6,634 nucleotides of DNA from a virus (lineage: Monodnaviria > Loebvirae > Hofneiviricota > Faserviricetes > Tubulavirales > Inoviridae). Made by a program: the position numbers and the translations under genes. Shown here piece by piece: positions 4,603 through 6,056 of the stretch; position 1 is the stretch's first letter; every line of letters begins with the position of its first letter. The stretch is taken from IMG/VR virus record IMGVR_UViG_2698536379_000001; one strand, given 5' to 3'. The notes under the pieces were generated by a model, which searched no databases, was not told where the DNA came from, and saw only the letters and a program-made list of their open reading frames with translations.

Positions 4603-5628
4603 ATGGCTATTTCTGCATATATTGGCATACCCGGCTCAGGAAAAAGTTATGAAGCCGTTTGCAATGTCATTATTCCGGCATTTACCAGCGGCCGGAGAGT
4701 TGTGACGAACATTTATGGTTTACAAAAAGATAAAATCACCGAACGTTATCCTGATGCAACGGGAGAAATTATTGTTGTGGATAATGATGATGTGCTTAAA
4801 GCAGATTTCTTTCCTTTTAAAGGTGGGGAAGGGAGCTTTTGCCAGTTTGGTGATTTAATTGTTATTGATGAAGCATGGCGAATCTTCGGTAGCGATAAGG
4901 ATATGACGGCTGAGAAGAAATCATTTATTGCTGAACATCGTCATTTTACGCACCCTGAAACGGGTATTAGCTGTGATTTGGTTATTGTAAATCAGTCACT
5001 TTCTAATATTGCTCGCTTTCTGAAAGACAAAATAGAAACAACTTACCGGATGCGCAAGCTGAAAGCGTTGGGCCTGAATAATCATTACTGCATTGACGTA
5101 TATTCAGGCCACAAAATCTATAAAAGCAACCTCGTCACCAGTTATCGCAATAAATATAATCCTGATATTTTTGAACTTTACAAAAGCTATGAAGGAAATA
5201 ACGGTAATGAAAAGCAGACAGATAAACGCCAGAGCATCTGGAATTCTGGCAAAGTCAGGTTCTTTCTTGTGCTTTTTCCATTGATGTTTATCGGGTCAGG
5301 CTGGCTGATTTACTCATTTTTCAGCACGTTTGGCCGAAGCGATCCCTCGCCAGATTTGGCTACAACAGATGTACGTGATGCGGCCATGTTTCGTTCTTCC
5401 GCTGCTACTCCAGCACCAGATACTCCCTCAGAACCAGCTGAACCGCCACTTTCAACCGAGTGGCGTATATCAGGGAGAATGACCAGTGAAGGCAGGGCGT
5501 TTGTGATTCTTGTTAACAGTGCCGGTGTTTTGCGTGCCGTTCCTGCATCCAGTTTTAATTACAAAGGGATGTTGATGAGCGGAATTATTGATGGTGAGCG
5601 TGTGACGCTTTATACGGGGAAAAAATAA
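4603..5628 (+). CDS. Zot/pI-family phage assembly NTPase
   Basis: 341-aa ORF. Walker A GIPGSGKS at residues 7-14 and Walker B-like LIVIDEAW. One central TM segment (VRFFLVLFPLMFIGSGWLIYSFF), then a Pro/Ser/Thr-rich linker and a C-terminal periplasmic domain, the topology of pI/Zot proteins. Stop overlaps the next start (TAATG at 5626..5630). Confidence 0.9.
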   Translation: MAISAYIGIPGSGKSYEAVCNVIIPAFTSGRRVVTNIYGLQKDKITERYPDATGEIIVVDNDDVLKADFFPFKGGEGSFCQFGDLIVIDEAWRIFGSDKDMTAEKKSFIAEHRHFTHPETGISCDLVIVNQSLSNIARFLKDKIETTYRMRKLKALGLNNHYCIDVYSGHKIYKSNLVTSYRNKYNPDIFELYKSYEGNNGNEKQTDKRQSIWNSGKVRFFLVLFPLMFIGSGWLIYSFFSTFGRSDPSPDLATTDVRDAAMFRSSAATPAPDTPSEPAEPPLSTEWRISGRMTSEGRAFVILVNSAGVLRAVPASSFNYKGMLMSGIIDGERVTLYTGKK

Positions 5629-6056
5629 TGAAAAAGATTTCACTCGCATTAACGCTACTATTTTCTTCATGTGCTTTCGCAGGGGCAGAGCTTGAATTAA
5701 ATAAAGTCAAGCTACCGGAGGCTATTTCTCTTATTTACAGTGAGGTGCTTAAAGTCCCGTATATGCTAGATCCACAGCTTGTTAATGATGAACGAATGAT
5801 TACATTCAGGTTAACACCTGATATTGATGAACGGGAATTTGTAACCCGTTATCTTGGCAATATGAACATTCGAATATGGACGAAAAAGGGTGTTGATTTT
5901 ATCGCGCCCTATACGCCGAAAGAGCCGGTTAAGCCACGTTTTACATGGACTTATACGCCTCAGTACCGTTCTGTTGCCTACCTGTCTGATATTCTTGGCG
6001 GCTACGTTTCAGGCTCCTTCAATAACAGTGGAGCAATCGTTAACTGTCTGTTTTGA
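5628..6056 (+). CDS. Secreted/periplasmic protein with secretin N0-domain-like region (no secretin pore domain)
   Basis: 142-aa ORF translationally coupled to the pI-like gene, with GGGGA 7 nt upstream. Signal peptide MKKISLALTLLFSSCAFA with an AxA cleavage site. Mature region KLPEAISLIYSEVLKVPYMLDPQLVNDERMITFRLTPDIDEREFVTRYLGNMNIRIW follows the alternating pattern of secretin N0 domains as recalled from Ff pIV and GspD. The domain call is pattern-based inference. Confidence 0.65.
   Translation: MKKISLALTLLFSSCAFAGAELELNKVKLPEAISLIYSEVLKVPYMLDPQLVNDERMITFRLTPDIDEREFVTRYLGNMNIRIWTKKGVDFIAPYTPKEPVKPRFTWTYTPQYRSVAYLSDILGGYVSGSFNNSGAIVNCLF

Follow-up and report, generated by a model that had tools for sequence, protein, structure and literature searches.

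The 142-aa open reading frame (ORF) that follows the Zot-like gene of this filamentous prophage is, very probably, the 5' 408 nt of gIV (the homologue of YPO2280) of a dif prophage of the CUS-1/YpfPhi type, fused by a 1,217-bp deletion to non-coding DNA lying downstream. It would be a remnant, and not a new assembly component. Judging from the sequences of carriers and relatives, the deletion is recent and restricted to one lineage of Escherichia coli. The gene family and the phage were both already known, and the allele is a pseudogene.

The prophage and its gene layout

The window, i.e., the whole stretch of 6,634 nucleotides that was analyzed, holds a single filamentous (Inovirus-type) prophage, read as far as the chromosomal dif site. 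Its features are listed below; the deletion is defined relative to the prophage of E. coli O55:H7 DEC5E (locus L001).

1-447, minus strand: HTH repressor
619-1671: gII-type replication protein (PF05144 and PF05155)
1683-2000: gV-like ssDNA-binding protein
2289-2522: major coat protein
2587-4299: pIII-like protein, 570 aa
4312-4599: pVI-like DUF2523 protein
4603-5628, plus strand: gI/Zot-like assembly ATPase, intact, 341 aa (PF05707 Zot, E 2.2e-26; PHROG 197, E 2.3e-94)
5628-6056, plus strand: truncated gIV (pIV-type secretin) ORF, 142 aa (from the ORF list, PHROG 1012, and the DEC5E comparison)
5628-5681, plus strand: predicted Sec signal peptide, residues 1-18, MKKISLALTLLFSSCAFA, with a putative cleavage between AFA and G read by the -3,-1 rule
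5691-5927, plus strand: N0 domain, about residues 22-100
5928-6035, plus strand: linker and first part of N3, residues 101-136 (pLDDT 50-71)
6034/6035, no strand: deletion junction, 1,217 bp missing (window compared with DEC5E L001)
6036-6056, plus strand: non-native tail IVNCLF and stop, residues 137-142 (pLDDT below 50)
6189-6386, plus strand: 65-aa ORF adjoining attR, kept (WP_001298440.1 CDS in DEC5E; PHROG 6642, E 1.1e-53)
6527-6554, plus strand: chromosomal dif/attR, an exact 28-mer (E. coli dif)

The gene order matches that of the CUS-1/YpfPhi group: repressor, gII, gV, coat, a pIII-like gene in the position of puvA, a pVI-like gene, Zot, secretin, two small ORFs, and attR at dif. The window copy departs from it in two respects, as the secretin is truncated and the first of the small ORFs is deleted. 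All the remaining phage genes of the window are intact, which fits a very recent deletion and does not, alone, demonstrate a defective prophage. In YpfPhi, two small ORFs without an assigned function lie between the secretion module made of YPO2279 and YPO2280 and attR (PMC4266046), and the 65-aa ORF kept here corresponds to YPO2281 in that layout by position only. The search of complete E. coli genomes also showed that UTI89 (O18:K1:H7) contains the same phage DNA.

The start of the pIII-like gene differs between annotations. The ORF list and the gene caller both place it at 2587, the RefSeq orthologue in DEC5E begins further downstream (520 aa; L001 4138-5700), and the alignment of PHROG 3942 to the ORF begins at residue 28.

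The start of the 142-aa ORF overlaps the stop of the Zot-like gene (TAATG at 5626-5630), whose product is the inner-membrane partner of the secretin, and its end lies 470 bp from dif. The ORF list and the dif match confirm what the initial annotation had reported on the position of the ORF and the roughly 470 bp that separate it from dif, and its signal peptide, as read from the sequence, is of a typical Sec type. In DEC5E, a CDS of 414 aa is annotated from the same ATG, likewise directly after the gI/Zot gene. It is labelled 'type II secretion system protein GspD' (WP_000724013.1) and is followed by ORFs of 82 and 65 aa.

A 1,217-bp deletion inside gIV

We compared positions 4600-6634 of the window with 5,426 complete E. 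coli genomes using megablast. The matches reached 100% identity and were in every case split in two, the 2,035 bp of the query being spread over 3,252 bp. Base by base, positions 1-6034 of the window correspond to L001 1402-7435 with 4 mismatches, and positions 6035-6634 to L001 8653-9252 with none. The window is thus collinear with the DEC5E prophage, at 99.93% identity over the shared sequence and with no other gaps, and both the deletion and its exact junction are directly established. The junction falls inside the ORF, 22 bp ahead of its stop. Residues 1-136 are identical to those of the 414-aa secretin, after which the two proteins diverge; here the frame runs on into DNA situated, in the intact phage, 42 bp past the 82-aa ORF, and this DNA supplies IVNCLF and the stop.

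Lost with the deleted segment are secretin residues 137-414 (comprising the double-walled beta-barrel, the gates, and most of N3), the intergenic region between gIV and the 82-aa ORF, this ORF itself (in the position of YPO2280a), and the 42 bp beyond it. A tblastn search of the window with secretin residues 137-414 returned nothing, and there is no trace of the 82-aa ORF elsewhere in the window. Neither microhomology, nor direct repeats (6-12 nt), nor a scar of an insertion sequence was found at the two breakpoints. Counts in a promoter and terminator scan of the intact region were at the shuffle expectation, so that no inference on lost regulatory sites is possible. The deleted 82-aa ORF (L001 8362-8610) is rich in Arg and Trp, has no match in Pfam, and has a marginal one to phrog_12343 (E 0.001).

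To place the breakpoint within the secretin, we used the domain borders published for f1 pIV (in mature numbering: N0 1-88, linker 89-107, N3 108-172, secretin domain 175-405; PMC8563730). The intact 414-aa protein matches solved secretins, including f1 pIV (PDB 7ofh, E 9.5e-11, residues 146-371), and in this alignment query residue 146 pairs with chain residue 136. With these borders, N3 starts near residue 118, which sets the breakpoint about 20 residues into N3. Hence, the predicted product consists of a signal peptide, N0, the linker, a stub of N3, and six junk residues. It has the signal peptide followed by a periplasmic N0 that characterizes pIV-type secretins, and lacks a complete ring-building N3 domain, since the native sequence ends at residue 136.

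The initial annotation had assigned an N0 fold to the mature protein, and rightly so according to structure modelling, which confidently predicts an intact N0 in the 142-aa ORF. The model has one N-terminal helix, at residues 2-13, in the region of the signal peptide. Its pLDDT is 44-71 across residues 101-142, and residues 101-136 are modelled with low confidence and are probably unfolded when the rest of N3 is missing. The same annotation had noted that the ORF has no secretin pore domain, in agreement with the empty tblastn search and with the lack of a PF00263 channel domain match in Pfam.

The profile searches proposed at that stage gave a split answer. The 142-aa ORF matches PHROG 1012, 'assembly (protein IV of M13)', with E 1.7e-34 and over profile positions 1-138 of 403 only; Pfam and NCBIfam returned no significant family for it, and a phmmer search against PDB sequences gave matches at chance level only. 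The homology of the ORF is thus detectable solely through PHROGs and genome comparison. The intact protein, for its part, matches PHROG 1012 from end to end (E 5.8e-137), PF00263 at residues 243-372, and, weakly, Secretin_N at residues 108-181.

The closest known system is the secretin encoded by gIV/YPO2280 of CUS-1 (E. coli O18:K1:H7) and YpfPhi (Yersinia pestis), with which the stub shares the start codon, the slot after Zot, the location in a dif prophage, and residues 1-136, which are 100% identical to WP_000724013.1. It differs from this secretin in the loss of residues 137-414, in its six non-native C-terminal residues, and in the disappearance of the neighbouring 82-aa ORF. The intact relative shares with f1/M13 pIV (7ofh; PHROG 1012) the N0-linker-N3-secretin architecture, although the similarity is only distant; the residues that match 7ofh (146-371) are absent from the stub, which is devoid of the channel-forming part. 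Identity is 8-16% to the N0 domains of type II, type III, and type IV pilus secretins (ETEC GspD N0 4jtm, XcpQ, PulD, EscC, InvG, PilQ) and to the STN domains of TonB-dependent receptors. All of them are either parts of larger proteins or constructs made in the laboratory; the N0 of the stub, by contrast, owes its free state to the deletion alone.

Intact relatives and carriers of the junction

At least 80% of the deleted segment is present in 97 complete E. coli genomes, and near-identical phages (99-100%) with an intact secretin are found in these 97 genomes and in a 9,565-bp circular form. The latter (NZ_CP128883.1) is a circular replicon comprising the whole phage with an intact gIV; across 8,277 bp it shares 99.4% identity with the prophage of DEC5E. 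Its record calls it an 'untypable plasmid', and it probably represents the replicative form of the phage, caught in the assembly.

To assess the conservation of length among homologues, the full-length protein was needed as a query, because a search with the 142-aa protein returned mostly partial proteins at contig ends, which are uninformative in this respect. Homologues at 50-77% identity to the full-length query have 394-420 aa and carry PF00263. They occur in Salmonella, Klebsiella, Serratia, Pectobacterium, Xenorhabdus, Yersinia, and other Enterobacterales. No gene of similar length restricted to N0 was found in related phages in the homologue search. The intact copies in near-identical prophages and the full-length homologues together lead us to conclude that the phage lineage encodes its own secretin.

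CTXphi-type inoviruses encode no secretin and use EpsD, the secretin of the type II secretion system of their host. The deleted copy resembles them in being integrated at dif, in having a Zot-like pI, and in lacking a functional phage secretin. However, the absence of gIV is a trait of the lineage in CTXphi, whereas here the lineage has gIV and only one clone lost it. The earlier view of a phage devoid of its own secretin, by analogy with CTXphi, finds no support, given the intact gene in the 97 complete genomes and in the circular form. The proposal, made alongside, that the ORF might be a remnant of an ancestral gIV was right about the remnant and wrong about its age, as a prophage with 99.93% identity, that of DEC5E, keeps the full 414-aa secretin.

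The other short N-terminal proteins are partial proteins at contig ends, frameshift splits of an otherwise complete gene (136+278 aa in locus L016, 124+300 aa in L017), or products of an error-ridden assembly. The split of L016 at residue 136, the position of the junction, was considered as a sign of a hotspot and rejected: the gene actually lost 1 bp near codon 120, and the resulting frame happens to run into a TGA at codon 136, hence the coincidence. A 91-aa 'phage-related secreted protein' (P0008, L014) was likewise rejected as a case of independent natural decay. It shows nine single-base indels across the gene, which are probably sequencing errors, and we do not count it as evidence.

At least 24 contigs encode the exact 142-aa protein; they come from NCBI, Logan, ENA, and IMG and include many SRA runs and one metagenome. 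The junction was identical in all 10 independent carrier contigs examined; its occurrence in many independent samples is directly established. In IMG/VR, the 36-mer spanning the junction has a single match, namely the window's own record, trimmed to gene borders: the provirus, called from an IMG isolate genome, is exactly window 619-6056. The junction is absent from the 5,426 complete E. coli genomes, mostly finished with long reads, and, as an exact 36-mer, from the GTDB species representatives.

Most carriers differ from the window by 0-4 SNPs per 6.6 kb, and GCA_001277435.1 is 100% identical to it over its entire length. The chromosomal DNA beyond dif, compared among six carrier loci and DEC5E, has 0-3 mismatches over up to 9.4 kb. 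These near-identical flanks, both among carriers and relative to DEC5E, indicate clonal descent. They also led us to reject a horizontal spread of the deleted phage, which we had assessed by a test of flank divergence. Most parsimoniously, a clone close to O55:H7 DEC5E would have undergone a single deletion and passed it on vertically.

One ENA metagenome scaffold with the same junction (L012) has the Zot gene as two ORFs of 89 and 241 aa (positions 306-1345), with one gap relative to the window. This reflects either further decay of the prophage or an error in the metagenome assembly.

Some further observations concern the left flank. Just left of window position 1 (positions 1-135 of the GCA_001277435.1 locus, L004), contig CYAE01000005.1 opens with 89 nt that match the 5' part of gII (window 624-712) without a difference. 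They join directly the sequence that lies 42 nt ahead of window position 1, beside the stop codon of the repressor. In several further carrier contigs, the break lies within the stretch 624-712 or just beside it, at window position 635 or 683. This suggests that the source genome has either a tandem duplication of about 755 bp (repressor, intergenic region, and 5' end of gII) or a truncated RS1-like copy upstream.

The cargo on the attL side is variable (L001 1-1302 and carrier L003 2723-4274, left of the repressor and outside the window; L013, the circular form, 8195-8614 and 9006..253). DEC5E and L003 have a 368-aa TIR-domain gene (PF10137, CAP12-PCTIR_TIR) and a 139-aa ORF (PHROG 4174). In the circular form, the shared sequence is limited to L001 882-9158, and another ORF occupies the cargo site. 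The TIR gene adjoins the filamentous prophage, is possibly carried by it, and could be a defence moron.

Consequences of the deletion and alternative readings

Since the deletion spared the promoter context as well as the translational coupling to gI, the stub is probably still transcribed and translated. It would then probably be exported to the periplasm as a fragment of about 13 kDa, made of N0 and the tail. Having no pore domain, it should be unable to multimerise in the outer membrane; the prophage would not extrude virions alone and would be a grounded, decaying, vertically inherited element.

Ff phages cannot be extruded without the pore. In YpfPhi/CUS-1, the disruption of YPO2279 abolishes the production of particles (PMC4266046). 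Since the pore is essential in the former and the secretion module is required in YpfPhi, the prophage of the carrier clone most likely cannot release virions without a helper, if these systems are a guide. In principle, the missing pore could come from a secretin of the host or from a related phage residing in the same cell. Phage secretins such as f1 pIV render the outer membrane leaky and trigger the Psp stress response, and the loss of the secretin may thus be neutral or mildly favoured.

One might nevertheless imagine a role for the stub itself. In f1, N0 contacts pI/pXI and the channel is formed by N3 and the secretin domain (PMC8563730). If the stub is made and exported, its free N0 could conceivably bind the periplasmic domain of the Zot/pI-like protein by analogy with this contact, and act as a decoy against CUS-1-type phages or, less likely, as a bridge to a host secretin. 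We give this chain of events a small probability. If true, a small phage-interference factor would have arisen from an accidental deletion and been kept in an E. coli lineage.

As a decoy, the secreted N0 would titrate the pI/pXI of resident or incoming CUS-1-like phages and cause a dominant-negative block of assembly, protecting the host or lowering its phage burden. The contact is established in f1 (PMC8563730), the coupling to gI is kept, and the allele persists in the 24 or more sampled contigs. However, clonal hitch-hiking over a very short time explains this persistence equally well, given the few SNPs among carriers. Moreover, the removal of the pore by the same deletion should already abolish production, so that no additional function is needed, and we regard a decoy as very improbable.

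We consider it very improbable that the stub is a functional adaptor, i.e., a free periplasmic N0 that binds the pI/pXI-like complex and couples it to a host secretin (e.g., GspD of the type II secretion system), the phage exiting as CTXphi does via EpsD. The confidently predicted N0 fold is compatible with it, as are the intact state of the other phage genes in the window and the part of N0 as the module of f1 pIV that contacts pI/pXI (PMC8563730). Yet the ORF ends in a stub of N3 and six junction-derived residues, the signature of an accident and not a domain boundary; the relatives lack such a gene, their full-length secretins being of 394-420 aa and the short versions being splits or error-ridden assemblies; and the near-identical flanks of the carriers give no sign that the deleted phage spreads horizontally. 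In addition, we know of no route by which a monomeric N0 could engage the N0 ring of a foreign secretin. The idea of the initial annotation that the slot holds an unusual morphogenesis component built around a free N0 finds no support, as the homologues with PF00263 occupy it at full length.

Finally, a mis-join in the assembly of a genome with an intact gIV is hardly credible: the junction never occurs in complete, mostly long-read-finished E. coli genomes and there is an odd repeat at the left end of the source contig, but all 10 contigs examined, which stem from independent runs and assemblers, read straight through the identical junction, and the breakpoints have no repeat able to cause a mis-join.

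The junk tail of six residues, the stub of N3, the clonal distribution, and the lack of a conserved counterpart speak for an accident rather than a designed component. Hence, the correct label of the ORF is a truncated secretin pseudogene of a CUS-1/YpfPhi-type prophage, a finding of little importance beyond annotation. It also carries a lesson, since one near-identical relative settled in one step what a reading of the sequence alone had made seem unusual. As a clonal marker, the junction at 6034/6035 would cleanly identify a lineage close to O55:H7 DEC5E, and contacts between N0 and pI in this phage family could be probed with the allele, a natural 'N0-only' construct. The prophage of the carrier clone should be treated as probably defective in export.
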